DNA of 48,214 nt from Raillietiella orientalis. Taxonomy: Eukaryota. Below the pieces are notes generated by a model. The model was not told where the DNA came from and did not search any database. It saw only the letters and a program-made list of their open reading frames with translations. The stretch spans positions 1 to 48,214 of the forward strand of contig JAYWIR010000167.1 in the NCBI GenBank assembly GCA_036172245.1, read 5' to 3'. Shown piece after piece: positions 1-45,482 of this stretch. The position numbers were made by a program, and so were the translations under genes. The stretch's first letter is position 1. Each line of letters opens with the position of its first letter.

Positions 1-702
1 TTCTGCAAGAAGCACGGACACGCTAAATGGAGCTGTCCGGACTTCGCAAATTGCAGAAGGATTCGTGGACTCTCTCCCGTGAGAGAGAGGAGTGTGAGGG
101 AGGCGGAACAGCCTCAGAAGATGGCAGGAAGTCCGAAGAAGACGAGGGAAGTCGCCCCGGCATCGGCGGACGGCTTCATAGAAGTCGGAAAGAAGGGGAA
201 GAGGAGGATGCTCGTCAAGGAGCAGGAAGCCTCTCTTACCCCAGAAGTAGCGGAAGAAGGCGAAAAAATGGAGACAGTCCAGGAGGAAGAGAAAGCAGCG
301 AAAGAAGTCACTCCGGTGTCGCAGGAGGCCCTGCAGTCCACCGAGGAGTTGACGAAGCTTTCAGAAGAAGTGATGGAGGTGCAAAGCGGGCCCCAGCAGG
401 TGCAAATCCTGCAGAAGATCTGTGATGCACAGGAAACTGTGAACCAGGTGGTGGAGGTGGCTGAACGAGAGAAGCTGGAGGAACAGCTTCTTGAAGTGAA
501 GGCCAACTTCTGCGCCAAGGTCGAGATAGAGGCTCTATCTCGGAAACTAATAGCGCGAGCCGAACACTCTACAGAAGAGGCGGAAGTAACCGACCTCACT
601 GGGACGGAGAGTGACGCGGCAAGCGATAAACCCGCTCCTTCTTCAACGTCTGGGAGATCACGCTCTCCCAGACAGAAGAAGCTCAGGAAGGCCAAAAAGT
701 AG
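1..702 (+). CDS. A1 ORF1 C-terminal part (zinc-knuckle gag-like nucleic-acid-binding protein), partial
   Basis: Frame open from base 1 to TAG at 700-702. Homologous to A2 ~5757-6460 and A3 ~37184-37887; ends ...QKKLRKAKK. Confidence 0.85.
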   Translation, partial: FCKKHGHAKWSCPDFANCRRIRGLSPVRERSVREAEQPQKMAGSPKKTREVAPASADGFIEVGKKGKRRMLVKEQEASLTPEVAEEGEKMETVQEEEKAAKEVTPVSQEALQSTEELTKLSEEVMEVQSGPQQVQILQKICDAQETVNQVVEVAEREKLEEQLLEVKANFCAKVEIEALSRKLIARAEHSTEEAEVTDLTGTESDAASDKPAPSSTSGRSRSPRQKKLRKAKK

Positions 703-714
703 GTCTTCCCCTTT

Positions 715-3700
715 ATGGCCTCATACCTATCGACCGCCAGGAGGCTGAACATCGCCTCCTGGAACGTAAACGGTTTGATCGACCAGACCAAGTGGAAAAG
801 AATCGTGCGGACCATCGCACGACAAGATATCGTCTGCCTGCAGGAGACCCACAAGATGGGTGTCGAGGTTAGTCAGCGGATGGAACGGCGCTTCAATGGG
901 CAGATGCTTGTCAGCGAGGGAGAAGGGAACACGCAGGGTGTGGCGGTCTTAATCAAGAACCATTTAGCCCCCACTATCCTAGAAGTGTTCTGTCCCTTAG
1001 CCGGACGGATCATCGGAGTGCGACTGGCCTGGTCCGCTACTGTTCACCTTATTTTGGTGAGCGTGTACCGACCACACAGGCTAAAACATCGTTGTGCGGA
1101 GTCGCTGCATGCAGCACTCCGGGAAAAGGTCGCGCCCAAGGACGTCGTGAACGTCGCTGGCGATCTGAACATCCTGGACAAGATTACACATTCCCAGGAC
1201 GCCAGAGGAAGGTCGGCGTATAGGCGGCTATCCGACGAGTTCGGATTGTTGTGGCGAACAGCAAGCCACAAGCCGATCGATCACGTCCTCCATAGCACGG
1301 AATTAGGGAATCGTATTCTGGGTTTTCGCGACACACCCACCACCCTGTCCGATCACCCGCTAATGCGTCTCTCCCTAAGGACGGAGAATCCTCGGCGAAA
1401 GCAAGGCACCAGGGCAGCGCTCATCAGCATGCCCGTCTGGTTCGAAACACATCCTGGACATCAGGAGGTCCTAGAGGCGATTCTCAAAGCGACTACCCTG
1501 GTGCGGTTTTCCCTAAGAACGGAGAATCCTCGGCGGAGGCAATGCACAAGGGCGGCGCTCATCAGCATGCCCGCCTGGTTCGAAAGCCATCCCGGAAATC
1601 AGGCTGTCCTGGAGACGATTCTGAAGGCAACAACAATTAGAAGAGTCGCCGACTGGTACAGCCTGAAACACAGGATACACCTGTTGCCAAAAATGAAGTT
1701 CGAAGATAGACGCTTGAGGCAGAAGGCGTACGGGGAGCTGAACATCCAAGATCGCTCACTCTCAAAGTACTTCGATCAGTACGAGAGTGGGTACGTCTTC
1801 AAGAACATAATAAAGGAAGTCGGCGTGCTGGCGAAGAGAAATCTGGCAACAGATATCTTCTGCATCCAGTGCGACGGTCAAAATCGAGAGTCATCTGGAG
1901 ACATCGTGAATGCCTTTCAAAGGCATTACACGAAACACTTCATGCGACAACATCTCTGTCGCTCTAGTCAACAGGCCTTTCTGAGCTACCTCGAGAAGAG
2001 GACCGACGATCTCCAGCGGAACAGACTGAAGGAGGAATTCTCCGAAGACGAGGTAAAGACTGCGTTTGGTCAACTACGCAAGGACGTGGCAGCGGGCCCT
2101 GAAAGCGTAGCCATCACTCACTATCAGCGGTACCTGCATGCCTACCTTCGTTTGTTCCACCAGTTTACACTCTGCATCCGCGAAGAAGGAAGACTTTCAC
2201 AGTCCTTCTACGAGAGTCGGATGAGTTTGTTGCCAAAAGGAGGCGACCTCACGCAGGTCGCTCAATGGAGGCCAATCTCGATCCTGAACTCGGATGCCAA
2301 GTGGTTGGCGAAGATCTGGTCCAACCGCTTAGGCAAGGTCATGTCGAGGCTCATCTCTCCGGTGCAAACGTGTGCAGTCGCTGAACGTCACATGTCGGAC
2401 AATGTCGAGTGTGCCCAGGCCACCGTCGGACTCAGCCGATACGTCGGCGAGAATCTGGCGCTAGTTTCCACTGACATGGAGAAGGCTTTCGACTCCATCG
2501 ACCATGGGATGCTCCTGAAGGTTCTGGAGAAGCTAGACCTTTAGGAACGCTACAGCAACTTCGTGAGGGTGGTACTCCAGAACCAGTACTGCCGAATCAA
2601 AATCAACGGCCAGGAGGCGGCAGCAATCCGGATGGAACGGGGAGTCCGGCAGGGCGATTCGCTGAGTCCGATGCTGTTCGTCATCTACATGGAGGCGTTG
2701 TCGTCCTTTATCGAGATGAGCGGACGACTGCAAGGCATTACAATCGATGGCCAGCGTCTTACCCATCTGGCATACGTTGATGATCTACTATTCTTTATCA
2801 AGGGAGAGAGAAATCAACGAGCGTTTCTGGATGTGGTAGACCTGATGGATCAAGGCCTGGGTCTAAAGATCAACGCCCAGAAAAGCCAGCTCTTGCCCGT
2901 TGGAATCTTCAATCTCTCCACTCTAGCGGGGAGAGGATTTCGAACGGTGGACAATGCCAAGTACCTGGGTGTCTACATTGGCGACGTCTCCGCGTCGAAG
3001 CTATTGTGGACCGAGATCCTAGGGAAAATGGCCAAGGAAGCAGCCAAGTACACCCGAACGGACCTTGGAATGAGGCGAAAGGCCAATATATGGAATGGAG
3101 TACTCCTTCCAAAAGTGCTCTTCGGGGCGGCCTTCGCGAGGATGAACAAGGAAACCACGAGGGAGTTCGACAAGCTCCAGAGAAAAACACTGTGGGGCCA
3201 CTATCGCCCAAGAGTCCTACTAAAACCCCTGTGTCTTCCCAGGGAAGAAGGCAGTTCCGGGATGAAGTCGCTTGCACACTTCATAGAAATCATGGATACG
3301 CGACACATCCTGGACATTGCCACTCACTGGGATGACTGGCCGTATGCGGCGCACAGGGCCTACGCGTTGCTGTTGAACAACTCGAAAGTCCTGATGACTG
3401 CGCTACTAGGCCGTGCAGGCGTATGGAAAAAAATCGACCCAACCTGGACGAGGAGGCAACGGCTGGTGCGAAAGCACAAAATCAAGATCGTGCCGAAAAG
3501 TAGGGAACTCCGGCAGGACAAGTACATCCTGGTGATCCCTTGGATGCTTCCTGTCCCACCGGACACGAGAAGCTGGATCCACCAGCAGTCCAGACTTACC
3601 CTTCAACGAATCCAGGAGTGGAAACGAGTAGGGTACCTACATCATACTCGTATACTTAGGTATATAGAGATGATGTTAGGAAGGTTTACCCACATGACTC

Positions 3701-4351
3701 GCGAAGTGTGCTTCAACCACAACGACTTTGCGTGCTCCAGGGTAACCAAAACAAACCTCCGAAGACTAATTCAAGAAGAACAGAGTGATATCAGTGACTT
3801 CCAGGAAGCCGCCGATCGCTACGGGAGTGACCGGATGAACCTGTTAGCGATTGGCACGACGCTCTGGAGGAGTGACCTTCCTTCGGGCACCCAGGATGAC
3901 CTCCTGATGTTTTATCATGGAGGAATCCAGAGTGGGTCCCGATTGCAGGGAAGGTCGAGACTGCACAGCATGTGGAGACATGGACACGAGAGTTCACGTC
4001 TTGACGTGTCCCACATTGCTGCATGACTGGCTGATCCTGAAAAGGATCATCGGACTTACGAACAGATCCTTAATGGAGATCCTCGCCGGGATGTTTCAGG
4101 GGGATGGTAATGTTCCCTGTTACAATCCCATGGTGAGGACGACCATCGCCCTCTTCACCGCAATACTTATGCGGTGGTGGAAAATAAGGAAATCCAGAAG
4201 AGCCGCACCACCGATGGAGATCCTACAAGGGCTCCTGAAGAGGGAAATCGGCATTAGAAACTGTGGGAAAGTGCAAGCCAGGACGTACCGATTCATCCTG
4301 AAGTGGATAGAAGACGACGCCCGGGACCAAACAGTAGGAAACCCACCATGA
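715..4351 (+). pseudogene. A1 ORF2 (APE endonuclease + reverse transcriptase + C-terminal CCHC), disrupted
   Basis: EN motifs SWNVNGL, LQETH, GDLN, IDH, SDH. RT motifs WRPISILN, DMEKAFD, GVRQGDSLSP, YVDD, KYLG. C-terminal CTAC..HVLTC. In-frame stop at 2542-2544; ~16-17 nt deletion/frameshift near 3948 relative to A2/A3. Confidence 0.92.
1360..1635 (+). repeat. In-frame 138-bp (46-codon) tandem duplication inside A1 ORF2
   Basis: Units 1360-1497 (LMRLSLRTENPRRKQG...ILKATT) and 1498-1635 (LVRFSLRTENPRRRQC...ILKATT); single copy in A2 and A3. Confidence 0.9.
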
Positions 4352-4675
4352 GTGCAGAACTTGTGAGAACCCAAGGACTTCATGGTGGTAAAAAAAAGTG
4401 CCAATGTTATGGATGAGATTGTAGTGTGAATGTTTTGATAGAAAAATTTTAGAAAAATAAATTTACCCCACCCCTCGTGGGACTTGGGGAAAACTGCCGA
4501 GTCGGTGAACTTGCTTCGCGGCTCAAAGTCTTGTGCGCTCGAAAACATAATCAGTTAATTGTGCTCGTGTGTGCCCGGAGAGAAGAAGTTTTCGAGACGA
4601 AACTACAAAAGAAGAGGCAAGGAAATCGCGGCAAAACACCTGCAGTGGTTTCGTGCAGCAAGACCAGCTTCCAGG

Positions 4676-6460
4676 ATGCAGGCACCTAGAGGAGGAGTTG
4701 AGAGACCGTGGTCCCCCATGGAACCCATGGAGGTAACGTGCGGCAACGGCGAGACGGTGGCAGGCATGCCGAGGATCGCGCCCACGGCGGGCTTTGCTGC
4801 GCCGGCGGCGGCGATGCCAAGGGTCGTGCCCGCGGCGACGACGGCGTAGGTCGTGCCCACGGCGGCGACGCCGAGGACCGTGCCCGCGGCGGGGAAGGTC
4901 AAGCCTGCGGCGGCGATGCCGAGGGTGCCGCCCGCGGCGGCAACGGTGGCGACGTCCAGGGTTGCGCTCGCGGCGGCGGCGTCCCAGGAAGGACCCGTGG
5001 GCGTCCACTCGGTTGAGGGCGAGACGCCATCTTGTTCGGCTGCAGCGGCGCAGCCCTTTTCCTATGCGTCGGTGGCGGCTGGACAAGCGACTGTCCACCC
5101 ACCAAGAAAATTCTTGAAGCCGCTATGCGGTAAAGTCCAAAAGGTGGATAGGCCGATCGTGGAGTTAGGGCCGAATGTGAAGCCCATCATTTCCAAGACG
5201 GGGCTGATCAAGTTCAGTGATATCAGGGAGGTGTATCTGTCCCTCGATAAGACGGATACCAATTTTGATCGCATACAGGCGATCATACCGGCAAGCAACG
5301 TGTTCACAGTCTTCACAGACTGTGAAAAGATTAGAGAGCGATTGATCCAGATGATCAATATACAAGGGAGGATGGTTTGTGGTATTGGCGAAATGCCCTA
5401 CACAACCGTCTTTCTGAACGGCATCTCCATCCTCACTCCGCAACTAACGGTGTGGGACTTTTTGGAGCAGTATGAGGAAGTTCTGGACCTTGAATTACAG
5501 AACTTCTCTGGAAATATATTTTCTGGCGACATGATCGCTAAAATGAAGTTGAAAGAGGAAGCTGTGATCCCTGGATTAGCCGTTCTTGACGAACAATTCC
5601 AGGGAGTGAACTTGCGTTACCGGCAACAGCCGATATTCTGCACCGGGTGCAAGCAGTTCGGCCACAGGGCCGGCGCTTGCCCAACGTGTCGTTGTTTGCG
5701 CTGCAGCAAAGTAGGACATCAAGTCCGAAACTGCCCGCATCCGGAGGTGTGCTCCTTCTACAAGAAACACGGACATGCGTAATGGAGCTGTTTGGACTTT
5801 GCAAACTGCAGAAGGATTCGAGGTTTCTCTCCCGTGAGAGAGAGAAACACCAAGGAGGCGGAAAAGCCTCAGAAGGCAGGAAGGACGAAGAAGGTGGAAG
5901 ATGCCGTCCCGGTATCGGAAGACGGCTTCATACAGGTAGGGAAGAAAGGAAAGATGAGGATGCTCGTCATGGAGCAAGAAGCTCCTCTTATCCTGGTAGG
6001 TGAAGAGCAGTAAGGCGAGAAGATGGAGGCAGCGCAGGAAAACGCGGAAGAAGAAATAAATGAAGCCACTACGGTGTCGGAGGAGGCCCTGCCATCTATA
6101 GAGGAGCACGCATCAGTGTCTAATGAAGACCTAAAGGTGCACAGAGGTATTTAGCAAGGGAAAATCTTGCAGAAAATCTGGAATGCACAGGAGAAGGTTT
6201 ACAAGGTTGTGGAGGACACCGAGCGCGAGAAGCTAGAGGAACTGCTTCTCGATGTAAAGGCGAACTTCTGCGCCAAGGTCGAGATAGAAACGCTATCTCG
6301 AAAATTGATCGCGCGGGCCGAACAATCCATGGAGGAGGTTGAAGTAACCGACCTCAGCGGAACAGAGAGTGACGCCGGCAGCGAGTAGACCGCTGCTTCT
6401 TCATTGTCACGAAGAGCACGCTCTCTCAGACAGAAGAAGCTCAGGAAGGCCAAGAAATAG
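4676..6460 (+). pseudogene. A2 ORF1 (Ala/Pro repeats, three CCHC knuckles), disrupted
   Basis: ATG 4676 (MQAPRGG...); CTGCKQFGHRAGAC, CLRCSKVGHQVRNC and a degenerate third knuckle. Stops at 4847, 5780, 6011 and 6386, plus frameshifts. Confidence 0.88.
4766..4985 (+). repeat. GC-rich coding minisatellite in family A ORF1 (AAAMPRVVPA-like units)
   Basis: Repeated gcggcga(t/c)gccgagg..cgtgcccgcgg units; also present in A3 at ~36186-36410. Confidence 0.75.
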
Positions 6461-6473
6461 GTCTTCCCCTTCT

Positions 6474-9400
6474 ATGGCTCCGTCCCTATCGACCGCCAGG
6501 AGGGTGAGCATCGCCTTCTGGAATGTAAACGGTATGGTCGCCCAGAAAAAAGAGAAAGGATTGTGCGGAGCGTCGCACAACAAGACATAGTGTGCTTGCT
6601 GGAGACCCACAAGATGGATCTCGAGATTAAACAGCAAATGGAACGGCGATTCAACGGGCAGATGTTCGCCAGCGAAAGAGAACGGAACACGCAGGGTGTG
6701 GCGGTCCTAATCAAGAACAACTTGGCATCACTATTCTGGAAGTGTGCTGTCCCCAACCCGCACGAATCTTCGGCGTGCGACCGGCCTGGTCTGCTACTGT
6801 TCACCTCATCCTGGTGAACGTGCACGGGCCGCACAGGCTAAAACATCGTTGTGCGGAGGCGCTGCATGCAACATCCCGTGTAAAGGTTGCTCCCAAGAAC
6901 GTCGTCATTGTTGCTGACGATCTCATTATATCGGATGAGATCACTCACTTCCAAGTCAGAAACCGATCGATCACGTCCAGCACAGCACCGAACTTGGGAA
7001 TCGCATTCAGGGTTTTCGTAAGATTATGACCTCCGTGTCCGATCACCATCTGGTGCGGTTTTAACTGAGAACGGAGAATCTTTGGCGGAAGCAAGGCACC
7101 AGGGCGGCGATCATCAGCATGCCTGCCTGGTTCGAAACCCATCGCGGACATCATGCTGTCCTGGAGACGATTCTGAAAGCAACAACGATCCGAAGAGTAG
7201 CCGACTGGGACAGCCTGAAACAGAAAATACACCTGTTTGCAAACATGCAGTTTGAGGATAGGCGCTTGAGGCAGGAGGCGTAACGGGAGCTGAACATCCA
7301 AGATCGCTCACTCTCAAAGTACTTCGATCAGTACGAGAGTGGGTACGTCTTCAAGAAAATAAAAGGAGAAGTCGGCGTAATGGAGAAGAGAAATCTGGCA
7401 ACAGATATCTTCTGCATCCAGTGCGACGCTCAAAAGCGACAGTCGTCTGTGGACATCGTGGATGCCTTCCACAGGCATTACACGAAACACTTTAGGCGAC
7501 ATCTCTGTCGCTTTAATCAACAGGCCTTTCTGAGCTACCTCGAGAAGAGGACCGTCGATCTCCAGCGGAGCAGAGTCGAGGAGGAATTTTTCGAAGAAGA
7601 GATGGAGACTGCGTTTGCACAACTACGTAAGACGTGGCAGCGGGCCCTGACATCGTACCCATCTCTCACTATCAGCGGTACCTGCATGCCTACCTGAGTT
7701 TGTTCCACCAGTTAACCCTCTGCATCCGCGAAGAAGGAAGACTTCCACAGTCCTTATACGAGAGTCGGATAAGATTTTTGCCAAAAGGAGGCGATCTCAC
7801 GCAAGTCGCTCAATGGAGGCCAATCTCGATCCTGAACTCGGATGTCAATTGGTTGGCGAAGATCTGGTGCAACCGCTTAGGCAAGGTCATGTCGTGGCTC
7901 ATTTCACCTGTCAAAACGTGTGCAGTCCCTGGACGTCACATGTCGGACAATGTCAAGTGTGCTCAGGCCACCGTCGGAATCCGCCGATACCTCGGCGAGA
8001 ACCTGGCGTTGGTGTTCATTGACATGGAGAAGGCTTTCGACTCCATCGACCATGGGATGCTGCTGAAGGCTCTGGAGAAGCTAGGCCTTCCAGAACACTT
8101 CAGCAACTTCGTGAGGGTGGTACTCCAGAACCAGTACTGCCGAATCAAAATCAACGGCCAGGATACGGTAGCAATCTGGATGGAACGGGCAGTCCGGCAG
8201 GGCGATTCGCTAAGTCCGATGCTGTTCGTCATCAACATGAAGGCGTTGTCGTCCTTTATCCAGAAGAGCGAACGACTGCAAGGCATAACAATCGATGGCC
8301 AGCGTCTTACCCATCTGACATTCGCTGATTATCTACTCTACTTTATCAAGGGAGAGAGAAATCAATAAGCGTCTCTGGATGTGGTAGACCGGATGGATCG
8401 AGTGCTGGGTCTAAAGATCAACGCCCAGAAAAGCCAGCTCTTGCCCGTTGGAATTCTCGATCTCTCCGCTCTAGCGAGGAAAGGAATCCGTACGGTGGAC
8501 AAGGCCAAGTACCTGGATGTCTACATTGGCGACGTCTCCACGTCGAAGCTTTTGTGGACCGAGATCCTAGGGAAAACGGCCAAGGGAGCAGCCAAGTACA
8601 CCCGAGCGGACCTTAGAATGAAGCGAAAGGCCAACATATGGAACGGAGTACTCCTCCCAAAAGTGCTCTGCGGAGCAGATTTCGCAAGGATGAACAAGGA
8701 CACCACGAGGGAGTTCGAAAAGCTTCCGAGAAAAACACTGTTGGGCCACTATTGCCCAAGAGTCCGACTGAAACCCCTTTGTCGTCCCATGCAAGAAGGT
8801 TGTTCCGGTATGAAGTCGCTTGCAGACTCCATAGCAATGATGGATACGCGACACATCCTGGACATTGCCACTCACTGGAATGACTGGCCGTATGCGGGGC
8901 ACAGGAACTACGCTTTGTTGCTGAACAACTCGAACGGCATATGACTGCGCTGTTTGGGCGAACAGGCGAATCGAAAAAAATAGACCCAATCTTTACGAGG
9001 AAGCAACAGCTGGTTCGAAAGCAGCAAATCAAGATCGTTCTGAGGACTAGGGAACTCTGGCAGGTCGAGTCCATCCTGGTGATCCCTCGGATGCCTCCTG
9101 TCCCGCCGGACACGACAAGCTGGATCCACCAGCGGTCCAGAGTTACCCTTCAACGAATCCAGGAGTATAACGAGGAGGGTACCTACATCACACTCGTACA
9201 CTTAGGCATATTGAGACGATGTTACGAAGGTTTATCCACATGAATTGCGAAGTCTGGTTCAACCACAACGACTTTGTGTGGTCCAGGGTTACCAATACAA
9301 ACCTCCGAAGACTAATTCAAGAAGAAGACAGTGGTATTAGTTCCCTCCAGGAAGCTGCCGATCGCTACAAGAGTGACCGGATCAATTTGTTTGTGATTAA

Positions 9401-9917
9401 GACGACCCTCTGGAGGAGTGACCTTCCGCCGTGCACCCAGGATAACCTCCTGAAGTTTTATCATGGAGGAATCCAGAGTGGGTCCCGATTGCAGCACTAC
9501 ACCAAAAGAAGGGAAGATCGAGACTGCACAGCATGTGGAGACATCGACACGAGACTTCACGTCTTGACGTGTCCCACATTGCTGCATGACTGGCTTATCC
9601 TGAAAAGGATCATCGGACTTACGAACAGATCCGTAATGGAGATTCTCGCCGGGATGTTTCAGGGGAATGGTAATGTTCCCTGTTACAATCCCATGGTGTG
9701 GACGACCATCGCCCTCTTCATCACCGCCATACTTGTGCGGTGGTGGAAAATGAGGAAAGCCAGAAGAGCCGCACCACCGATGGAGATCCTACAAGGGCTT
9801 CTGAAGAGGGAAATCGGCATTAGAAACTGTGGGAAAGTGCAAGCCAGGACGTACCGATTCATCCTGAAGAGGATAGAAGATGACGCCCAGGACCAAACAG
9901 CAGAAAACCCACCTTGA
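6474..9917 (+). pseudogene. A2 ORF2 (EN-RT-CCHC), heavily disrupted
   Basis: Fragments 6563-6817, 7380-7697, 7634-8368 (DMEKAFD, RQGDSLSP), 8381-8944 and 9219-9917 all align to A1/A3 ORF2; several stops and frameshifts and a ~60-nt EN deletion near 6957. Confidence 0.9.
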
Positions 9918-10055
9918 GTGCAGAACTTGTGAGAACCTGAGGACTTCATAGTGGTAAAAAAAAATGCTAATGGTATGGATGAGATATTAGGGTGAATGTT
10001 TTTATAGAAAAATTTTAGAAAAATAAATTTACCCCACCCCTCGTGGGACTTGTTG

Positions 10056-11418: not shown

Positions 11419-11420
11419 TA

Positions 11421-15073: not shown

Positions 15074-15074
15074 A

Positions 15075-24654: not shown

Positions 24655-24695
24655 GATGAAGCGGATGAAAGCACGGAGACGAGAGCGAAGAAAAA

Positions 24696-27144: not shown

Positions 27145-27162
27145 CACAACGGGGATTCGGCG

Positions 27163-34700: not shown

Positions 34701-35830
34701 CTCTGGCTCCGGAGTTTCTAAGCCATTGGCTCTCCAGCACGTCGAAGAACTCGATTCTTTCGACACGCTGATGAAAGCCGCTCTGCGCGTATACGTTCGT
34801 TACGACGAGGTCGATCGAATCTGACCACTTGAGTACAAGTTGGCCCATTCGCCCTTCCTGGTCGAATCGAACGCTGCGCAACGCTCCCGCCATCCTACTA
34901 TTGACGTGAAAACCGACTTCGCACGATTGTGCAGAACTTTCTCGCCAGTACAGAATGCCACCCGCGCGCTGTTCGATTTCGGCAACCTCCGCATCGGAGA
35001 TGTAATGCATCTCCTGAAGGATCGTCAAACCGGAATGTCGCAGGGTGTCTGACACGTCGCGCCTCTTTCCGTCCCTGCGCAGCCCATTGACGTTCCAACA
35101 GGCTACGCTAAATCGACGAAAAGGGGCAACTTCCAGCATTAAGGCTGATGAGGTGAGCACAGATTTCTCGCCTTGTCCGGCGAGTGGTCACTAGACAGAG
35201 CGGTCGATCTCGGAGACTAGACATCTTCATTGGAAGCCGCTCTGCTTGTTGCCGGTAGCCCAGTGGTGAGGTCATTTTCCTCCACTGTGCTCCACAGTAA
35301 CAGTTCCTCCTCGGCAATCACGCGCTTGCAGGTCTTCGGGTGGGGATTGCGCAGTTTCTTGCGGTTGTCGCGCTGTGTGCTCTTTCTCTTGGACTCTGGA
35401 TCAGAATTCGACAGTCGAGTGCTTGCCAGGCGCTGCTGCTGTTTCCCGGAATTAGGGAAATCGTTCGCTGCCTGTTTCGTAGAGCTTTCTGCAACTGCGG
35501 CTGGGACTTTATTCCTTTTAGCCGCAGCAGCAGCTTCATGCTCCATCCGCTAAAGGACGACTGCGCAGGAGGAAAGAATCGCAATCTTTTTCTGGGTAGG
35601 TTTCGCGGGTTCCCTTCGCACACTCACCTTCACACAGAGCTGCGAAGAACTTGATGGTTTCTTTCTAATGACCTTTCTCGCCAGCAACCAGCCGTCTTCC
35701 TGCGTGTCGCAGTTATCTTTGCCATCCTGAGATGGCGCTGCTTCCACGGATGTAAGAGGCGTTGCCTTGGCTGCCTCTTGGAGTGCTGCCTCCACGCAGG
35801 CGTAAGCAACTCCTCTAGCGATCGCGAGAG
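31790..35830 (-). mobile_element. LINE copy E, 3' part (ORF1 tail + degenerate ORF2 from ATG 35139, lacking the last codons and 3' UTR)
   Basis: TAATG at 35141-35137, then MLEVAPFRRFSVACWNVNGL, GDFN, KTPGEDG, DLHKAFD, YADD, CLTC..HLLLEC; many stops and frameshifts. Confidence 0.88.
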
Positions 35831-36015
35831 CCTTGCGCATGGGCGGTATCGCCGCCGCTGAACGAAAGGGAGGCGTGATTATTGCTAGTTTAAAACTATA
35901 CCCAATACCCCGCCAAGGCAGTGTTTAAAACCACTGCCAAGGCAATTTCTGAGTGCCCTGAGAGGGAAAGTGTTTGAGTGAACGCCAGTGTGGAAAGAGT
36001 GCAACCGGGGACCAT

Positions 36016-36034
36016 CAGCAGCAGCAGCAGCAGC
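36016..36034 (+). repeat. (CAG)6 microsatellite in the A3 5' UTR
   Basis: cagcagcagcagcagcagc read directly. Confidence 0.8.
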
Positions 36035-36094
36035 GCCGAGAAGTCCACGGTGGAAAACCTGCAGTCGTCCCGAGCAGCCGGAACAGCTGCCAGG

Positions 36095-37887
36095 ATGCAG
36101 GCATCTGGAGTTAGAGGAGTGGTGAGGCCATCGTCCTCCATGGAAGCCATAGAGGTAACGTGCGGCAACGGTGAGGTGGCAGCAGGCATGCCGAGGATCG
36201 CGCCCGCGGCGGGCTTTGCTGCGCCGGCGGCGGCGATGCCAAGTGTCGTGCCCGCTGCGACGACGGCGGAGGTCGTGCCCGCGGCGGCGACGCCGAGGAT
36301 CGTGCCCGCGGCGGGGAAGGTCGCGCCTGCGGCGGCGATGGCGAGCGTGCCGCCCGCGGCGGTAAAGGCGGCAACGTACAGGTTTGCGCCCGCGGCGGCG
36401 ACGTCCCATGCGGGACCCGCGGGCGACCACGCGGTGCAGAGAGTGACGTTATGTTGTTCGGATGCGGCGCCGCAGCCCTTTTCTTATGCGTTGGTGGCGG
36501 CTGGACAGACGAGTGTCCACCCACCTAGGAAATTTGGTAAGCCGCTTAGCGGAAAAGTTCTGTGAACATTGAACCGACCAATAGTAGAAATGGGTCCCAA
36601 CGTGAAGCCCATTATCTTCAAGACCGGGCTAATAAAATTTAATAACATCAGGGAGGTCTATTTGTCCCTCGACAAGACGGACATAGACTTTGATCGCATT
36701 CAGAAGATCATTCCATCGAACAACGGGTTCGCAGTCTTTACAGACTGTGAAAACATTAGAGAGCGATTGATCCAGAAGGGGATCAATATACAAGGACGGA
36801 TGGTTTGTGGTATTGGCGAGATGCCATACACAACCGTCTTTTTTAACGGCATCAACATCCTCAAACCGCAACTAGCAGTGTGGAATTACTTGGAGCAGTT
36901 TGGGGAAGTTCTGGACCTTGATTTCCAGAACTTCTCTGGAAACATATTTTCTGGCCACATGATCCCCAAGATGAAGTTGAGGGAGGGAGCGATGATCCCT
37001 GGATTGGCCGTTATTGGCGAACAATCCCAGGGAGTGGATGTGCGTTACCGGCAACAACCGGTATTCTGCACCGGTTGCAAGCAGTTCGGCCACAGGGCCG
37101 GCGCTTGCCCAATTTGCCGCTGCTTTCGCTGCGGCAAAGTAGGACATCAAGACCGAAACTGCCCGCAGCCGGAGGTGTGTTTCTTCTGCAAGAAACACAG
37201 ACATGCGAAAAGAAGCTGTCCGGAGTTTGAAACCTGCAGAAGGATCCTAGGTCTCTCTATCGTGAGAGAGAGAAACACCAAGGAGGCGGCAAAGCCTCAG
37301 AAGGCAATAAGGCCGAAGAAGTTGAAAGAAGCCGTTCCGGTGTCGGCGGACGGCTTCATAGAAGTGGGAAAGAAAAAAAGAGGAGGATGCTCGTCAAGGA
37401 GCAAGGAACTCCTCAAATCCTGGAAGCAGCAGAGCAGGAAGGCGAGAAGATGGAGGTAGCGCAGGAAAGCGCGAAGGAAGAGAGATAGGAAGGCACTAAA
37501 GTGTCGCAGAAGGCTCTGCAGACCACGGAGGAGTTGGCAACGCTGGCGGAGGAGATCATGGAGGTGCAGAGCGGCCCTCAGCAAGAGAAAATCTTAAAGA
37601 AGATCTGCAATGCACAAGAGAACATCAACCAGCTTGTGGAGGTCGCTGAACGCGAGAAGTTAGAGGAACAGCTTCTCGACGTGAAGGCGAGCTTCTGCGC
37701 CAAGGTCGAGATAGAGGCGCCATCTCGAAAATTGATCGCGCGGGCGGAACACTCTACGGAGGAGGCGGAAATTACCGACCTCACAGGTACGGAGAGTGAC
37801 GCCAGGAGCGAGAAGCCCGCTGCTTCTTCATTGTCTGGAAGAGCACGCTCTCTCATACAGAAGAAGCTCAGGAAGGCCAAGAAATAG
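36095..37887 (+). pseudogene. A3 ORF1 with three CCHC knuckles, disrupted
   Basis: CTGCKQFGHRAGAC, CFRCGKVGHQDRNC, CFFCKKHRHAKRSC; stop at 36563-36565 and a frameshift near 37380. Confidence 0.88.
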
Positions 37888-37900
37888 GTCTTCCCCTTTT

Positions 37901-40900
37901 ATGACCTCTTCCATATCGACCGCCAGGTGGCTGAACATCGCCTCCTGGAACGTAAACGGTGTGGTCGACCAGGGAAAAAGAAGAAGGATTGTGCGGACCA
38001 TGGCACAAAAGTTCATCGTGTGCCTGCAGGAGACGCACAGGATGGGTCTCGAGATCAGCCAGCGAATGGAACGGCGATTCAACGGGCAGATGTACGTCAG
38101 CGAAGGAGAACGCAACACGATGGGTGTGCCGGTGCTAATAAAGAACCACTTAGCCTTCACTATTCTGGAAGTGTTCTGTCCCCAACCCAGACGAACCATC
38201 GGCGTGCGACAGGCCTGGTCCGCAACTGTTCACCTTATCCTGGTGAACGTGCACGGGCCGCAAAGCCTAAAACATCGTTGTGCAGAGGCGCTGCATGCAG
38301 CACTCCTGCAAAAGGTCGCCCTTAAGGACGTAGTGATTGTTGCTGGCGATCTCAACATTTTGAATGAGATTATTCATTCAGAAGACGCCAAGGAAGGACG
38401 GCGTGTGGAAGGCTATCCGAAGAGTTCGGACTGGTCTGGCGAACAGCAAGCCACAAGCCGATCGATCACGTCCTGCACAGTACCGAACTTAGGAACCGCA
38501 TCCAGGGGTTTCGCGACACTATGACTACGGTGTCCGATCACCCCCTGGTGCGTTTTTCCCTAAGAACGGAGAATCCTCGGTGGAGCCAAGGCACCAGGGC
38601 GGCGCTCATCAGCATGCCCGCCTGGTTCGAAACCCATCCCGGACATCAGGCTGCCCTGGAGGCGATTTTGAGGGCAACAACAATCCGAAGAGTCGCCGAC
38701 TGGGACAGCCTGAAACACAGGATACACCTGTTTGCGAACATGCAGTTCGGGGATAGGCGCTTGAGGCAAGAGGCGTACCGGGAGCTGAACATCCAAGATC
38801 GCTCCCTGTGAAAGTACTTCGGTCAGTACGAGAGTCAGGACGTCTTCAATAACATAAAAGGGGAAGTCGGCGTGCTGGAGGAGAGAAATTTGGCAACAGA
38901 TATCTTCTGCATCCAGTACGACGGCCAAAAGCGACAGTAGTCTGAGGACATCGCGGATGCCTTTCACAGGCATTACGCGAAACAGTTCAGGCGACTACAT
39001 CCGTGTCGCTCTGGTCAACAGGCCTTTCTGAGCTACCTCGAGAAGGGGACCGACGACCTCCAGCGGAACAGACTCGAGAAGGAGTTCTCCGAAGAAGAGG
39101 TGAAGACTGTGTTTGGGCAACTTCGCAAGGACGTGGCAGCGGGCACTGACATTGTACCCATCACGCACTATCAGCGGTACCTGCACGCCTACCTGCGCTT
39201 GTTCCACCAGTTGACCCTCTGCATCCGGGAGGAAGGCAGACTACCTCAGTCCTTCTACGAGAGTCGGATGAGATTGGTGCCGAAAGGAGGCAACTCAACC
39301 CAGATCGCCCAATGAAGGCCAATCTCGATCCTAAACTCCGATGCCAAGTGGTTAGCGAAGATCTGGTCCAACCGCTTAGGCAAGATCATGTTGAGGCTGA
39401 TATCTCCGGTCCAGACATGTGCAGTCCCAGGACGACACATGTCGTGGAATGTGAAGTGTGCCCAGGCCACTGTTGGACTCAGTCGATACGTCGGCGAGAA
39501 CCTGGTGATGGTGTTCACTGACATGGAGAAGGCTTTCGACTCCATCGACCACGGGATGCTGCTGAAGGTTCTGGGGAAGCTAGGGATTCCGGAACACTTG
39601 AGCAACTTCGTGAAGGCGGTACTCCAGAACCAGTACTGGCGGATCAAGGTCAACGGCCAGGAGACGGCAGCAATCAGGATGGGACGAGGAGTCCAACAGG
39701 GCGACTCGCTAAGTCCGATGCAGTTTGTCATCTATATGGAGGCGTTGTCGTCCTTTATCGAGAAGAGCGGACGACTGAGCGGGATTACCATCGATGGCCA
39801 GCGTCTTACCCATCCGGCATACGCCGATGTTCTACTCTTCTTTATCAAGGGAGAGAAAAATCAGCGTGCGTTTCTGGATGTGGTGGACCTGATGCAACAG
39901 GTCTTGGGCTCAAAAATCAATTATCAGAAGAGCCAGCTGTTGCCCGTCGGAATCCTGAACCTCTTCACTCTAACCGGTAGTGGATTCCGTACGGTGGACA
40001 CGGCCAAGTATCTGGGAGTCTCCATCGGCGACAGCTCTGCGTCGAAGCTGCTGTGGAAGGAAATCCTAATGAAAACGGCCAAATAAGCAGCGAACTACAC
40101 TCGAACGGACCTTGGGATGAAGCGAAAGGCCAGCATATGGAACGGAGTACTCCTTCCGAAAGTGCTCTTCGGGGCGGCCTTTGCGAGGATGAACAAGGAC
40201 ACTACTAGGGAGTTCGAGAAGCTGCAAAGAAAAACACTCTCGGGCCACTATCGCCCAAGAGTAAGACTGAAACCCCTGTGTCGTGCCAGGGAAGATGGCG
40301 GTTCCGGGATGAAGTCTCTTGCACATTCCATGGAAATCATGGATACGCGACACATCCTGGACATTGCCACTCACTGGGATGACTGCCCGTATGCGGCGCA
40401 CAGGGCCTACGCGTTGTTGCTTAACAACTCGAAAGGCCTGATGACTGCGCTGCTAGGCAAATTAGGGGAATGGAAAAAATTCGATGCAACCTGGAGGAGG
40501 AAGCAACGGCTGGTGCGGAAGCACCAAATCAAGATCGTGCCGCGAAGCAGGGAACTCTGTCAGGACGAGTCCATTCTGGTGATCCCTTGGATGCTTCCTG
40601 TCCCGCCGGACACGAGAAGCTGGATCTACCAGCGGTCCAGAGTTACCCTACTGCAAATCCAGGAGTGGAGGCGAGGAGGCTACCTACATCAATCTCGTAT
40701 ACTTAGGTATACAGAGATGATGTTAGGAAATTTTACCCACTGGACCCGCGAAGTGTGGTTCAACCACAACGTCTTCGCATCTTCGAGGGTAACCAGAACA
40801 AACCTCCAAAGGCTTATCCAAGAAAACGACCGTGACACCAGTGCCATCCAGGAAGCCACCGAACGCTACGGGAGTGAACGGTTCATCCTGTTAGCGATCG

Positions 40901-41418
40901 GCACGACGCTCTGGAGGAGTGATTTTCCGCCGGGAACCCAGGATGACCTCCTGATGTTTTATTACGGAGGAATCCAGAGTGGGTCAAGATTGCAGCACTT
41001 CACAGGAAGACGGGAAGATCGAGACTGCACAGCATGTGGAGACATCGACACGAGACTTCACGTCTTGACGTGTCCCACATTGCTGCATGACTGGCTGATC
41101 CTGAAAAGGATCATAGGACTTACCAACAAGTCTGTTATGGAGATCCTCGCCGGGATGTTTCAGGGGGATGGTAATGTTCCCTGTTACAATCCCATGGTGA
41201 GGACGACCATAGCCCTCTTCATCACCGTCATACTTGTGCGGTGGTGGAAAATGAGGAAAGCCAGGAGAGCCGCACCACCAATGGAGATCCTACAAGGGCT
41301 CTTGAAGAGGGAAATCGGCATCAGGAACTGCGGGAAGATCCACGCCTGGACGTACCAATTCATCCTGAAGAGAATCCAGGACGACGCCCGGGACCATCCA
41401 GCTGGAATACCCGTCTGA
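37901..41418 (+). pseudogene. A3 ORF2 (EN-RT-CCHC), disrupted
   Basis: Fragments 37901-38524, 38521-38811, 39388-40086 (DMEKAFD, YADV) and 40117-41418 are colinear with A1. Confidence 0.9.
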
Positions 41419-41554
41419 AAAGCAGAACTCCAGTGCAACCCAAGGACCCCCAAGTGCAAAATGTTTGTATTGAGTGAATGAGAGTGCGAATGTAAATATT
41501 GTATTTTTATAGAAAAATAAACTTACCATATCCCTTGTGGGACTTAGGGAAACT

Positions 41555-43036
41555 TAGCGTTCGCGAGAGGCGCTGCCTCTTCCAGATCGGAGGGATCGCG
41601 CGTTGACTTTGCGACCGTTGGGGGCACTGCTGTAGCGGTTGTTCTCTCCCTAGCAGTTTCTTCCTTGGCCGCAGTAGGCGCTGCGTCCGCGCGCGAGGAC
41701 TGCGGGTTTGCCTGCTGTTTCTCAGCTGCACACGGTGCCTGGGGCACCTTGGGCGCGGTAGCTTCAGATGGCGCGGTGTTCTTTGCTCGCGGGCGCGTTT
41801 TTCCCGTATCGTGCGAAGGACCGCATTCCGCGCCGCTCGTCGAGGCCTTGCTACGAGGCTTCGCGGTCGTGATGCCGACAGTACGAGGCTCTTTGACCTT
41901 CGGCACAATTTCTCCTGCATTCAACAATTGGCTGCAAGGTCTCGTAGAAGGGTCGCATTCTTCGCGAGTTTCCTTCGGGTCGATAGCCGGAGGCTTTGGC
42001 ACGACGAGTTTTTTTGTGTTTTTACCCCTTCTTTGTGGTTGCGAGAAACAGTTTTCTGAACGTGCGTGGTCGCGGTTTTCGCAACGCTTTTCGAAGCTTT
42101 GATGTTTCTTTCTCTCGATTCGCGGCGATTATTCCGCAATGCGGAACGCGATTCGTTCGTGCGCTTTTCGTTTTTTAAAAAAAGCTCTAAGAACGTTTAT
42201 TTAGTGTGCCCGTGCTCGTGGCAGTAGCGGCAAGCGGCCGAGGAACACTTCGTAATGCGATGACTCTCCTGTCCGCATTCCGCGCATACACGCGTTTGCC
42301 CGGAAAACCACAGGCGGACGGTCATTCCATCCACCTGCGGTCGCGTGTGCATTGCACGGCGATCCGTCATTGTCACTCGCACTTGCGCGAGCCCGCTGTG
42401 GTGGTCTTCGAACCCTTCAGCAGGGTTTGGCAACCTCCAAAGCGCGTGGACGGTAGCGAATTTTTCAAGGGCCTCCACGACCTGGCGGTCCCAAAGGCCC
42501 TTACATACTCCACTGAGCCGGACAACGAACGACTGGTCCGTTGTGACAGGGAGTATCTCCTGCCCACGAATGAGCAGCGGCGTGTGCAGCAAACGTTGCG
42601 TAAGGAGAGCGTCCTTACTGGACCACTCCCAGTATCCGCACCCACTCATGGGCATGATGGACACCAGTTGGCCTTTTTGAACTCCAATCCGTTGGAGTTC
42701 CTGGCCAAACTCGCGCCCAACCCGCTCAGACATAAGCTCACTTACCTTATACCTGAGTGCAGACGTGTAGTTATTTCCTACATACGCCTGAAGTTCAGGG
42801 CTGTCGGGCGAAGGTCCCATCGTAGCCGCGAGGGCAGCGACCTGGGAGAATGTCCCCGCCGTCGGCGAGGACAGAGGCTTTTGCTAGTAGCCGAAGCAGC
42901 CATCTCAGGAGCAGGTTGCGTTCCCTTCTTGCGGCTGATGTTCTTCTTTCCTCCCATTGCAGCATAGAAGAATAGCAGAACAAAAACACACAAGAGCCAA
43001 TCTATTGCGAAGCGACGCAAAAGCACGTCCGTACGC
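41555..43036 (-). mobile_element. LINE 5' part (5' UTR + degenerate B-type ORF1, start ~42957); probably the 5' half of element E
   Basis: ELQAYVGNNYTSALRYKVS..., CAECGQESHRITKC, CRYCHEHGHTK; 5' end GCGTACGGACGTG; the candidate TSD links it to 35830. Confidence 0.83.
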
Positions 43037-45482
43037 GACCGTCGCTGATGCTTGAGACGGGAGATGTTCCCGCTTCTTTCCGCTCAGCAAAGGTGCGGCT
43101 CCTGCCGAAAGGCGGTGATTTGCGCCACCTCAGCAACTGGCGTCCGATCACATTGGTGAATTCGGACGTCAAGTTGTTCTCCAGGCTATGGGTCGCGCGC
43201 CTGGGGAGAATCGCAGAGTCCTTGGTAAGTCCGGAGCAGACGTATGCTGTTCCGGGGCGGTCCATGGACGCGAATCTCTTCTTCGCGCGAACATGGTTTG
43301 AGTAGCAGCAGTGCGTGGCGCAGCAGAGCCAGGCAGCCGAAATCGCCGCTGCCAAAGGCAAGCGGTTGTGTTCAAGGCACGATGGAACGCCGGGAGCCTT
43401 AGCGGTCGCCGTAGATCTCTGCAAAGCGTTCGACAGCGTACACCAGGACCTCCTTCTGGAGCTTCTGGGGCGCCTAGGCCTCCCGACGCACCTCATCGCC
43501 TACTTTCGCTTCTGCTGGTGCCAAGCGTTATGCTGTATCTGTTTCAGCGGGCGCCACGTGTCTGGCATACCCATACGGCGGGGAACTAGGCAGGGAGGCA
43601 GCTTAAGCCCCCTGCTCTTCAGCATCTTCTTTGAGTTGGTGCTGAGGGCGTACAGGCTGACGTCGGCCAACCTGCCGAGCTCCTGCCCGGGAACACGAGC
43701 CGTGGCCGCGTATGCTGACGGCCTTCTCCTGCTTCTGCCCATGTCCACCGCGGCGTCCAGGTTCGAGGACTTCTTCGAGCTCATTCGTCGGGGAGCGGGT
43801 CTGAGCGTCAACAGGACGAAATCAACCGTTGTACCGGTTGGCTCTACGAGAGAGGGGCAGTCCGACTAAATCCGCCTGGGGATCCCCACGGGCAGGTGCT
43901 GGAAGTACCTCGGCGTTCCCTTGGGCGCCTTCTGTCCAGCAGAAGCGTGGTCGGACTGCCTTCACGACGTCGAGACTACTCTGGGCCCGTTCGAAGGCGG
44001 CAGGTTTCTCCTGTCGGAATGGGTCTTCGTGTGGAACATTTTCTTTGCCCCTTTTCTTCCGTTCCCTCTTTTTTGTTTGTCCCCCTCCCTACTCGGCTAA
44101 GCGCCGGGCGCAACGCTTGTTGCGTAACGCTCTGTGGGGACCGGCGAGGTCCAGGATACGCCTGAAGGACTTGGCGGCTCCTCGGCGGGATGCAGGATCG
44201 GGCATCCTGACGCTGAAGCCGATCGAACTGCTAGTGCAGTTCCGCATGCTGGCACTTTGTGCGAAGCTCTGGACTACTCCCTGGTGTGCTCGAGCGCGGC
44301 TGCTGCTGCGGCGCAGCACGGGTGGCGACGGACTACCTTCGTTGCATCTGCGCACGGAGCGCGCCCAGAGAGGATTCGGCTTCCCTTTGAAGCAGCTCGC
44401 CACGCTTCTGGGAAAGCATGAGTGGATCTCCTGCCGGCCGACGAACTTCAACGCCTGAAGGCAGGAAGCCTTATCGTCCTGGGCAGCGCAACAGGATGTG
44501 TCCAGTTTGGAACTCCGTTTCGTGAAACTTTCCCCATACTGTCCAGTGGGGGAGGTGCTGGAAGACCAGGACCAGTGGACACTCCTATTCGCTACGGCAC
44601 TCGCCGCAGCACTGTGTGCACTGATGGTGCGAGATGACAGTGACCTGCCGGCGAGGTGAGAGATCACTAGCGAAATCGCAGGCGAAACCCGACTGCTGGG
44701 CGGCTGGCGGACTTGCGAAGTGGCAGACGCTGCCACAGCTCGCATTCTTGCTAAGGGGCTTCTCCGGTGGAGTGAGCTCCTCGGGGTGCCCACCGATGAA
44801 CTTGTGGTCCCTTCTGCGTGTTTGGACGCGACTCTCTTCCCCCTTCGGTGGAAGAAGGACGCTTTTCTGCTGGTGCATTTGGGTTTGTACTGCAACCAGC
44901 GGGCGCACCTGATTTCCGTGGGAGTTGCCCCTGTGCCAAATGCGGAGCGGTGGAATCGCTTCCGCATTTGCTGTTTGAGTGCGGTGATCTCCAGGAGCTG
45001 TGGCAGCGGCCGTCTTTAGCGCTCCTGCACCCCGGACACACCGCACTCGATTGGATGCGCTGCTTCTACACGCGAGGCGGTCTTTCTCTTGGAGAGGTCG
45101 TCGCAATCATCTGCTGCGTCCGCGTCATTGTCAGGGCCCGCCACGTATTGCAGATGCGAGGAGTCCCAACATCGGTCCCCGACACCGCAGCTTGCAACCT
45201 GCAAATGGCTGCCGGGTGGCCACACCTGAGAGCAGAAGTGAGGACGGGGATCGGCGGCATTGATCGCCGGTTCTGAGAACAGGAACGCTTAGACTGTATA
45301 CCCCTATCCCCGCCTTCCCTCCCAATTTATTTATTTATTGTCCCACCCTCTCCCGTTCCGAACTCTAAGTGCGCCTGGACTGCGTTTGGGGAAATCTACT
45401 CCCCATTTTCTGTTCCCCTTGCCTGGGAACACAGTTGCCAGTTGATATTATTAATAAACTTCCCAACGCATCTAGGTAATAA
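43037..45482 (+). mobile_element. 5'-truncated LINE F (RT to C-terminus pseudogene ending 45276, 3' UTR, decayed terminal hairpin)
   Basis: LLPKGGDLRHLSNWRPITLVNSD, DLCKAFD, YADG, CAKC..HLLFEC. AATAAA 45453-45458 is followed by CTTCCCAACGCATCTAGGTAATAA, alignable to the B1 end CGCCCCGGCGTGACCGGGTGATAA. Confidence 0.88.

Follow-up and report, generated by a model that had tools for sequence, protein, structure and literature searches.

The first 45,484 nucleotides (nt) of contig JAYWIR010000167.1 (assembly GCA_036172245.1, positions 1 to 48,214 of the forward strand; this whole 48,214-nt stretch is hereafter the window) are a nest of 11 long interspersed nuclear elements (LINEs), preserved in 12 pieces that interrupt or abut one another. 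The DNA is eukaryotic, and the window contains no N. In our assessment, the nest would best be explained as a Russian-doll series of ~11 insertions made by target-primed reverse transcription, each of which landed within an earlier copy or at its border; the LINEs would, like Zepp, have a preference for DNA or chromatin already occupied by LINEs, which would serve them as a safe haven. We give this explanation as a whole, insertion preference included, a probability of roughly 0.55, and are highly confident of the nested anatomy taken alone. The anatomy, the target-site duplications (TSDs) and the re-use of insertion sites can be seen directly in the window. The nest is a real structure and not an unprecedented one, the precedent being the Zepp LINE clusters of green-algal centromeres.

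Composition of the nest

An earlier reading, made from the letters alone (the sequence-only reading), had described about 11 abutting or interrupting LINE copies over ~45 kb, belonging to two lineages and several subfamilies, and this description holds (Table 1). Lineage A is represented by eight elements (A1 to A7 and A9) and lineage B by three (B1 to B3, all on the plus strand); the proteins encoded by the second open reading frame (ORF2) of A and B are 24% identical. Lineage A copies share 64%–95% nucleotide identity with one another and 44%–85% protein identity with the intact ORF2 of A3, and self-blastn separates them into at least five subfamilies (A2/A3 95%, A4/A5 87%, others 64%–74%). 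Lineage B copies are 84%–89% alike (B1 versus B2 89%, B1 versus B3 85%).

In a Pfam scan, Exo_endo_phos and/or RVT_1 was found in 11 of 30 long stop-to-stop frames (one RVT_1 match being below the curated cut-off), and a twelfth frame matched zf-CCHC alone, weakly. Searches by tblastn gave 17 high-scoring segment pairs (HSPs) in 10 places for the intact A3 ORF2 (19115–22732, minus strand, 1205 amino acids) and seven HSPs for the A3 ORF1 frame, and every one of the 35 non-self HSP pairs from self-blastn ends at element borders. The tails of ORF1 are not conserved, so four stretches (10066–10426, 25744–26279, 35188–35821, and 41570–42205) were assigned by position, frame continuity or composition. 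Two candidate elements, “A8” and “A10”, were considered separately and then merged into A4 and A6. In A4, the ORF1 frames are unbroken from 27101 to ~25300, and the fragment at 26280–27101 is continuous in frame and composition with 24710–25743.

The claim that essentially no host DNA lies between the copies stands insofar as nearly everything up to 45484 is LINE, but it had missed two pieces, a 138-nt copy of the U4 small nuclear RNA (snRNA) and a 135-nt stretch that is probably the 5′ leader of B2. The latter has no Rfam match at E ≤ 1 and only weak similarity to the leader of B3. The 18 nt at 27145–27162, previously regarded as an unassigned spacer, continue A6 exactly where A5 interrupts it. 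The sharp end of the array, which had been placed at 45482, is confirmed to within 2 nt by the A7 3′ end at 45484. GC content is 0.51–0.62 up to ~45.5 kb (0.52–0.61 for the LINE elements alone) and 0.41–0.42 beyond. Observed/expected CpG ratios are ~1 (0.83–1.19) in each element and in the flank, with no sign of methylation-driven CpG decay.

Proposed order of insertion

Ten of the 11 resolvable insertion sites lie in or at another LINE; the sequence-only reading had claimed this for all of them, but A7 departs from it, with non-LINE DNA directly past its 3′ end. The host sites are at ORF2 codons ~50, 164, 450, ~580, and ~1129 and at two places in ORF1 tails, which makes seven positions, on either strand, and a single defined target in the style of Tx1 is not what these positions describe. 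No one sequence attracts the new copies, which tend instead to land at the previous nick or no more than 18 nt from it.

Every partial element is a right-hand half: the minus-strand A9, A2, A4, and A6 show 5′ parts, and the plus-strand A1 and A7 show 3′ parts. We therefore predict that the matching left-hand halves are to be found to the left of position 1, in an estimated ~17 kb. As insertions into the nest, A3, A5, the U4-B3 pair described below, and probably B2, are complete at both ends. The series would have begun with A7 entering host DNA, followed by A6 entering A7, and by U4-B3, A5, and A4 entering A6. A2 and A3 would then have entered A4, A1 would have entered A2, A9 would have entered A1, and finally B2 and then B1 would have been added at A9. 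On this order, the sequence to the left should bring, one after another, the missing 3′ portion of A9 and 5′ portion of A1 (ORF1 to ~ORF2 codon 50); the remainder of A2, starting at codon ~581 and followed past its 3′ end by ATTTCAATC; the remainders of A4 and of A6, the latter continuing directly from ...CCCCGTTGTG; and the missing 5′ portion of A7, beyond which host DNA is expected.

Twin priming was considered for two junctions. “A10” and A7 could be taken for one 5′-inverted insertion, and this was rejected: “A10” is the 5′ part of A6, split off by U4-B3, and A6 and A7 overlap over ORF2 codons 450–1129 at only 71% identity. The pair A9/A1 may be a single twin-primed insertion.

Target-site duplications and re-use of sites

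The clearest evidence for re-use comes from A3, both flanks of which carry ATTTCAATC (8–9 bp). The left copy is the final 9 nt of the visible part of A4, comprising A4’s own (G)DFN codons; at the corresponding position, the sister copy A5 has GGGAGATTTCAATCTCCG. The right copy is situated between the A3 terminus ...GGTGATAA and the A2 5′ terminus GAGTGCGG. Because the complete 5′ ends of lineage A share a terminal motif (see below), these 9 nt must be target sequence and not part of an element, and because ATTTCAATC is found on both sides of A3, A2 and A3 entered A4 at the same site. Decay identifies A3 as the later of the two.

A second pair is found in A6, which breaks off at ...CGACGCTTCTTCA (...TTCTTCA), where A5 starts. 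The A5 3′ end is followed by the 18 nt CGCCGAATCCCCGTTGTG (starting CGCCGA) and then by the 5′ terminus of A4. At the place homologous to the A6 break plus these 18 nt, A3 reads TTCTTCACGCCGA; this match identifies the 18 nt as A6 sequence, and A6 was thus hit twice, 18 nt apart. In a third pair, B1 and B2 abut, with the B2 leader directly after the B1 3′ end. Each pair has both members in the same orientation, with the 3′ end of one against the 5′ boundary of the other. By our own arithmetic, only ~0.04 pairs within 18 nt would be expected by chance for 10 random sites in 45 kb.

The 0–18 nt spacing of the three pairs suggests that successive insertions used the same nick site; two of the re-used sites are GGGAG/ATTTCAATC and TTCTTCA/CGCCGAAT. 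Once a copy has been inserted by target priming, the site of the first nick (the upstream flank together with the duplication) would survive at the 5′ junction alone, and a second cut there would stack a new copy immediately 5′ of the resident one, in the same orientation.

Could A3 instead be a decayed tandem duplicate of A2? The two are 95.1% identical over 3727 nt, with 182 differences in 3726 columns, nearly all of which change an amino acid (ORF2 is 85% identical as protein and 95% as DNA). This candidate was rejected, because the differences are evenly spread and A3 nonetheless lacks any stop in 1876 codons.

Two other explanations bear on the paired sites. The head-to-tail runs (A6, A5, A4, A3, A2 on the minus strand; B1, B2 on the plus strand) could each be a single cDNA made by serial template jumps of the reverse transcriptase (RT). 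Complete 5′ termini do directly follow complete 3′ ends at A3/A2 and B1/B2, and the U4-B3 fusion demonstrates that RNAs can be joined end to end, by RT or by an RNA ligase. However, the 9 nt of A4 between A3 and A2 and the 18 nt of A6 between A5 and A4 are remnants of targets, of a kind that template jumping would not leave, a cDNA of ~22 kb would be needed, and the copies differ greatly in decay. We disfavor template jumps and consider them very improbable.

Alternatively, these elements could be sequence specific in the manner of Tx1, with a defined site carried by related LINEs or, in the case of lineage B, located within or beside U4 genes. Both A3/A2 and A5/A4 are cases of apparent double use of one phosphodiester, three of the four lineage A 3′ flanks start with CG(A/C)(A/C), and a public sequencing run has the B 3′ region followed by U4 at high word depth (see below). 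However, the seven sequences downstream from 3′ ends have no clear common motif, and U4 is cargo in the window, which leaves such targeting improbable.

A U4 snRNA–LINE chimera

The U4 copy directly precedes B3 and is full length by Rfam (91.9 bits, E 1.9e-19, model positions 1–138 of 138, plus strand). The U4-B3 pair is enclosed by an exact 9-bp duplication, TCGCGAGAG (35822–35830 and 41561–41569), outside of which both flanks are minus-strand sequence that is rich in K, R, S, and P and resembles an ORF1 tail. Codon 282 of A6 ORF1 is at 42206 and A6 ORF2 starts at ~35150–35190, so that ~1270 nt lie between them once the insert is removed; a tail of this length fits an ORF1 of ~700 codons (the A3 ORF1 frame has 671). 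When U4-B3 is excised in silico, a 279-codon frame crosses the join. From the duplication, the minus-strand A6 flanks, and the joined frame, it follows that U4-B3 entered A6 ORF1 as one unit, antisense. Given that U4 lies within the duplicated target, with A6 ORF1 on both sides, it was cargo here and not the target.

B3 reaches 88 nt upstream of the start of B2 homology and includes ORF1. We infer that U4 was joined to the B3 5′ end by a template switch, most simply one made by RT on reaching the end of the LINE RNA. If the insertion preference is real, U4-B3 would document template switching by a non-mammalian L1-type RT.

A 455-nt contig from the public run (word depth 25.9) contains the B 3′ region (41235–41406), then 180 nt, and then U4 positions 35870–35972; ~195 nt would be expected between the two parts if a B 3′ end directly preceded U4. 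This suggests that B followed by U4 is an arrangement present elsewhere too, as would not be expected from a one-off chimera. Such B-U4(-B) arrangements could arise from a U4 leader that is inherited, from tandem units, or from insertion next to U4 genes.

Element termini and coding capacity

All seven visible 3′ ends (A1, A3, A5, A7, B1, B2, B3) are complete, and none of the seven has poly(A); instead they have AATAAA, a short hairpin, and 6–12 further nt. In lineage A the end is TTAATAAAC, then a CCCGG...CCGGG hairpin, then GTGATAA(A), and in lineage B it is AAATAAA, then a CCCAC...GTGGG hairpin, then ...AAACTGCCG. The stem is kept with differing loops in A1, A3, and A5, lost in A7, and weakly predicted in B; fold z-scores for the hairpins are mixed (−4.35 to +0.5). 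The retention of the stem hints that RT may recognize a structure at the 3′ end. Among the six visible lineage A 5′ ends, five (A2, A3, A4, A6, A9) are complete and share the terminal motif GAGNGC(G/A)GACGTG (variant GTACGGACGTG in A6); A5 is 5′-truncated.

A3 has no stop in 1876 codons, and on its sequence it is possibly an active element. Its ORF1 frame (22708–24723, 671 codons) overlaps ORF2 by 25 nt, and its ORF2 matches Exo_endo_phos (E 2e-12) and RVT_1 (E 4.7e-20), both of which domains are also found in B1 and B3. Judged by this predicted domain order, an N-terminal apurinic/apyrimidinic (AP) endonuclease followed by RT in ORF2, both lineages are members of the L1 superfamily. In a PDB search, the human LINE-1 ORF2p is by far the closest solved structure (E 1e-46 for A, 1e-23 for B), and R2 proteins match more weakly (E 1e-14 and 8e-7, respectively). 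A zf-RVT match in A3 ORF2 (E 0.0054, 17.8 bits) is below the cut-off of 27.5, and B has no match to this model; by eye, a C-x2-C-x7-H-x4-C string is present near the ORF2 C-terminus in both lineages. For ORF1, lineage B has a zf-CCHC match (E 0.0021) that is below the cut-off, and lineage A has no Pfam match at E ≤ 10 and two CX2CX4HX4C strings by eye. The endonuclease and RT, the putative ORF1 knuckles, the putative C-terminal Cys/His motif, and the structural match together bear out the L1-like assignment made at first sight.

Relatives are distant. A search of 5.8 billion proteins gave best relatives that are 23%–33% identical and L1-like, many of them with zf-RVT (PF13966), and the few named ones are L1-like proteins of plants and fungi. 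The ESM Atlas returned generic RVT/EEP clusters only, with no useful taxa. Among JGI metagenome contigs, a protein scan gave 14 stretches matching the pattern and no relatives, and the DNA pattern of the lineage A 3′ end had no match.

Decay, chronology, and weighing of the explanations

The copies differ in decay. A1 has 15 in-frame stops and two frame changes in 1155 codons, and A9 has three stops in 298 codons. There are seven stops in 1118 codons of A6, four in 766 of A7, and four in 1210 of A5 (with one frame change), and two to four ORF2 stops in each of B1, B2, and B3 (two, with one frame change, in B2). A2 has one stop in ~580 ORF2 codons and one in 669 ORF1 codons. We simulated neutral decay of A3 ORF2 under the A2/A3 substitution spectrum (400 runs); at least 15 stops were reached in 0 of 400 runs at 5% divergence and with a probability of 0.44 at 15%. 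By this simulation, neutral divergence would be roughly 10%–15% for A1 and 5% or less for A2. Editing of cDNA was considered as the source of the A1 stops and rejected, as G-to-A (0.131) and C-to-T (0.122) changes at conserved columns are symmetric.

Several points weigh against the explanation that we prefer. A1 and A9 look much older than A2, yet the intact 3′ end of A1 interrupts A2. A1 and A9 may stem from trans copying of dead RNAs in which the 3′ hairpin was kept; alternatively, A2 may have been renewed by gene conversion from a third copy, or a deletion may have ended at a re-cut nick beside A1. As for gene conversion between A2 and A3, no tracts were seen, the differences being evenly spread. 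A5 has no TSD longer than 1 nt. For A5, B2, A1, and A7, no common word of at least 8 nt was found near candidate junctions, a search limited for B2, A1, and A7 by a second junction that may fall off the window. The left-hand halves are predicted only, being outside the window. An insertion preference is also inseparable from selective retention in a tolerant region, and we deal with one locus, in a window chosen as striking.

Public sequencing data count in favor of the preferred explanation. Of the words sampled from the window, a fraction of 0.11 is present in one public DNA run, and no RNA run is listed. In that DNA run, the summed word depth is 36–70 over the B3 body, 26–49 over the A5 body, and 2–3 over the flank, but depths of contig words are not copy numbers. 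The 491 run contigs that fall on 26501–46500 comprise 15 that are at least 99% alike, 114 at 95%–99%, 145 at 90%–95%, and 217 below 90%, and given this spread the run holds relatives of these families and not the exact locus.

An assembly artefact, with repeats collapsed or mis-joined, is barely credible. It is true that repeat-rich DNA is prone to mis-assembly and that the public-run contigs are short and mostly less than 95% alike. However, mis-joins would not yield matching duplications, an 18-nt continuation of A6, or a host ORF that closes on excision, and with copies 5%–35% diverged, collapse is unlikely.

A more serious contender is a passive graveyard, in which near-random insertions survive in a gene-poor, low-recombination region and old copies become the commonest target, with no targeting at all. 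The seven differing insertion positions on both strands of the host elements are consistent with this, as are the 2–15 ORF2 stops by which most copies are decayed. Also, A7 did insert into non-LINE DNA, and inspection of ORFs in the flank (45485–48214) found no convincing ORF and no recognizable gene. Retention alone is not enough, however, to explain three insertion pairs that are 0, 9, and 18 nt apart in the same orientation, and there are 0 bases of host DNA among 10 insertions, next to a 2.7-kb flank without any LINE. On balance we consider a graveyard somewhat unlikely. The earlier suggestion that these families target each other fares accordingly: the nested anatomy and the three near-coincident pairs fit it, but it cannot be separated from passive accumulation.

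A preference for LINE-occupied DNA would be compatible with the locus being a specialized domain of these LINEs, such as a centromere (as in Zepp and ZeppL), a subtelomere, or a small-RNA cluster. Here the parallel with Zepp clusters and the GC content of the LINEs (0.52–0.61, versus 0.42 in the flank) argue in favor, and the lack of telomeric or satellite repeats in the window argues against; by analogy, such a domain is possible but rather doubtful. A more elaborate version is that two unrelated, poly(A)-less L1-type lineages share a homing to LINE-occupied DNA by re-cutting the nick at the 5′ junction, so that full-length copies stack head to tail and build a centromere-like domain made of LINEs only. 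Such a system would resemble Zepp but follow another targeting logic, and its host might not be a green alga, with the apparently intact A3 still present and with lineage B habitually carrying or adjoining U4. We regard this combination as unlikely.

If the preference is real, the nest would be a further example of centrophilic or safe-haven LINEs outside the described families (protein relatives ≤33% identical), and one with an unusually readable insertion history that includes duplications, nick re-use, an intact candidate source, and an snRNA–LINE chimera. Should the nest prove to be no more than a graveyard, it would be an ordinary repeat block, and the value of the analysis would lie in the corrected map.

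Other features of the window

A tRNA scan of the window found no genes. Apart from U4, Rfam at E ≤ 1 gave three sub-threshold matches to miRNA models in GC-rich LINE sequence, which we regard as chance. Tandem Repeats Finder (TRF) reported six short arrays, all within LINEs. One is a 138-nt tandem duplication at 1372–1622 (1.8 copies, 86% match) in B1 ORF2, between the endonuclease and RT parts, that appears as a repeated peptide in the A/B alignment. GC-rich short tandem repeats (27–57 nt) are present at 4801–4977 and 36223–36362 (near the 5′ ends of B2 and B3, upstream of the zinc-knuckle ORF1) and at 25731–25849 (in the A4 ORF1 tail). A 50-nt imperfect palindrome at 31524–31573, where the homology of A5 to A4 stops, marks a deletion of ~850 nt in A5 ORF1, and the A5 ORF1 fragment upstream of it (31575–31793) is far more diverged from A4 than the remainder of A5. 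In the flank there are long A and T runs at 46917–46932, 47456–47477, and 48198–48209, and the sequence is GC-rich again past ~47900.

Table 1. Elements, junctions, and terminal motifs in the window, from left to right
Feature	Positions	Strand	Description
B1	1–4499	+	Lineage B; 5′ part off window, 3′ end intact; EEP and RVT_1 in ORFs 703–2544 and 2545–4026
B1 3′ end motif	ends 4499	+	GAAAACTGCCG
135-nt stretch	4500–4634	+	Between B1 3′ end and start of B2/B3 homology; probably B2 5′ leader
B2	4635–10065	+	Lineage B, head to tail after B1; 3′ end intact
A9	10066–11416	-	Lineage A 5′ terminus and ORF1 (codons 32–329 at 11302–10427 by tblastn); 3′ side cut by B2 3′ end
A9 5′ terminal motif	at 11416	-	GAGCAGACGTG
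A1	11417–15075	+	Lineage A 3′ part, from ~ORF2 codon 51 to intact 3′ end; heavily decayed; three tblastn HSPs
A1 3′ end	ends 15075	+	CCGGGTGAAAAT
A2	15076–18792	-	Lineage A 5′ part, 5′ terminus complete; reaches ORF2 codon ~580 inside RT motif VAVDLHKAFD
Right TSD of A3 (8–9 bp)	18793–18801	-	ATTTCAATC, between A3 3′ end and A2 5′ end
A3	18802–24708	-	Full-length lineage A; open ORF1 (671-codon frame) and ORF2 (1205 codons)
A4	24709–27144	-	Lineage A 5′ part: complete 5′ terminus, ORF1, ORF2 to codon 164 at GDFN motif
A6 sliver, 18 nt	27145–27162	-	Remnant between A5 and A4 insertions
A5	27163–31783	-	Lineage A; 5′-truncated in ORF1, internal ORF1 deletion relative to A4, 3′ end intact
A6 left piece	31784–35830	-	ORF1 tail and ORF2 to codon ~1129 (tblastn codons 4–1129)
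Left 9-bp duplication copy	35822–35830		TCGCGAGAG; end of A6 left piece
U4 snRNA retro-copy	35829–35966	+	Rfam RF00015; fused in sense to B3 5′ end
B3	35967–41560	+	Lineage B with ORF1 (three putative CCHC knuckles) and ORF2; 3′ end GGGAAACTTAGCG ends 41559
Right 9-bp duplication copy	41561–41569	+	TCGCGAGAG; 15 bp if one mismatch is allowed
A6 right piece	41570–43034	-	5′ terminus, ORF1 N-terminal part, ORF1 tail; tblastn ORF1 codons 62–282 at 42868–42206
A6 5′ motif	at 43034	-	GTACGGACGTG
A7	43040–45484	+	Lineage A 3′ part, from ORF2 codon ~450 to intact 3′ end; outermost, borders non-LINE DNA
Flank	45485–48214	.	GC 0.42, without LINE homology
3′ ends with AATAAA and hairpin	15027–15075, 18802–18850, 27163–27211, 4451–4499

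Comparison with known systems

Two kinds of array from other organisms invite comparison. The nested intergenic blocks of plants are long terminal repeat (LTR) retroelements inserted into one another, without host DNA, and the HeT-A/TART arrays of Drosophila are head to tail, with truncated 5′ ends, at the chromosome end. The nest is unlike the former in that it is made of LINEs and not LTR elements, and unlike the latter in that its 5′ ends are complete and the window has no telomere repeat. Set against the usual traits of the L1 superfamily, the nest has TSDs (9 bp for U4-B3, 8–9 bp for A3), and the seven visible 3′ ends lack the poly(A) or A-rich tail.

The Tx1 clade, as described in PMC4494074, is found in animals and includes Tx1 in Tx1D, Keno in U2 snRNA genes, and crocodilian families in Mariner or LTR elements. 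As in the nest, these elements have an AP-type endonuclease and are close to L1, and they have other transposons or snRNA genes as targets. In that description Tx1 elements use one defined target sequence, whereas the nest has at least seven different sites.

Mammalian U6/L1 chimeras, in which an snRNA and a LINE share one TSD, have been attributed to template switching or RNA ligation (bioRxiv 10.1101/2025.02.02.635956). U4-B3 is like the chimeras reported there in having a full-length sense snRNA on the 5′ side of the LINE, within one duplication (9 bp), and unlike them in that the snRNA is U4 and not U6, the LINE is apparently full length and not 5′-truncated, and there is no poly(A). Nor would a B 3′ region ahead of U4 at high depth in the public run be expected from one-off chimeras of the U6/L1 type.

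Centrophilic retrotransposons are a recognized class according to bioRxiv 10.64898/2025.12.07.692804. The Zepp elements of Coccomyxa are reported to form nested clusters of 1.5–42.3 kb, one per chromosome, with 61% GC versus 53% for the genome (PMC3446292), and ZeppL clusters are reported to be bound by CENH3, which maps almost only to ZeppL (bioRxiv 10.1101/2025.03.28.645958). Like the nest, Zepp (Chlorella, Coccomyxa) and ZeppL (Chlamydomonas and relatives) are, in these accounts, L1-type, occur nearly only as self-nested clusters, and are GC-richer than the genome; the corresponding values here are 0.52–0.61 for the elements versus 0.42 for the 2.7 kb of flank that is visible. Zepp arrays reportedly consist mostly of 3′ ends, owing to 5′ truncation, whereas five of six visible lineage A 5′ ends in the nest are complete. 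The nest also differs from Zepp in combining two lineages (24% identity) and at least five lineage A subfamilies, and in having 3′ ends with AATAAA and a hairpin in place of poly(A). Insertion inside ORFs and the re-use of nick sites set it further apart from Zepp and ZeppL, whose clusters are nevertheless, judged by cluster anatomy, the closest known case.

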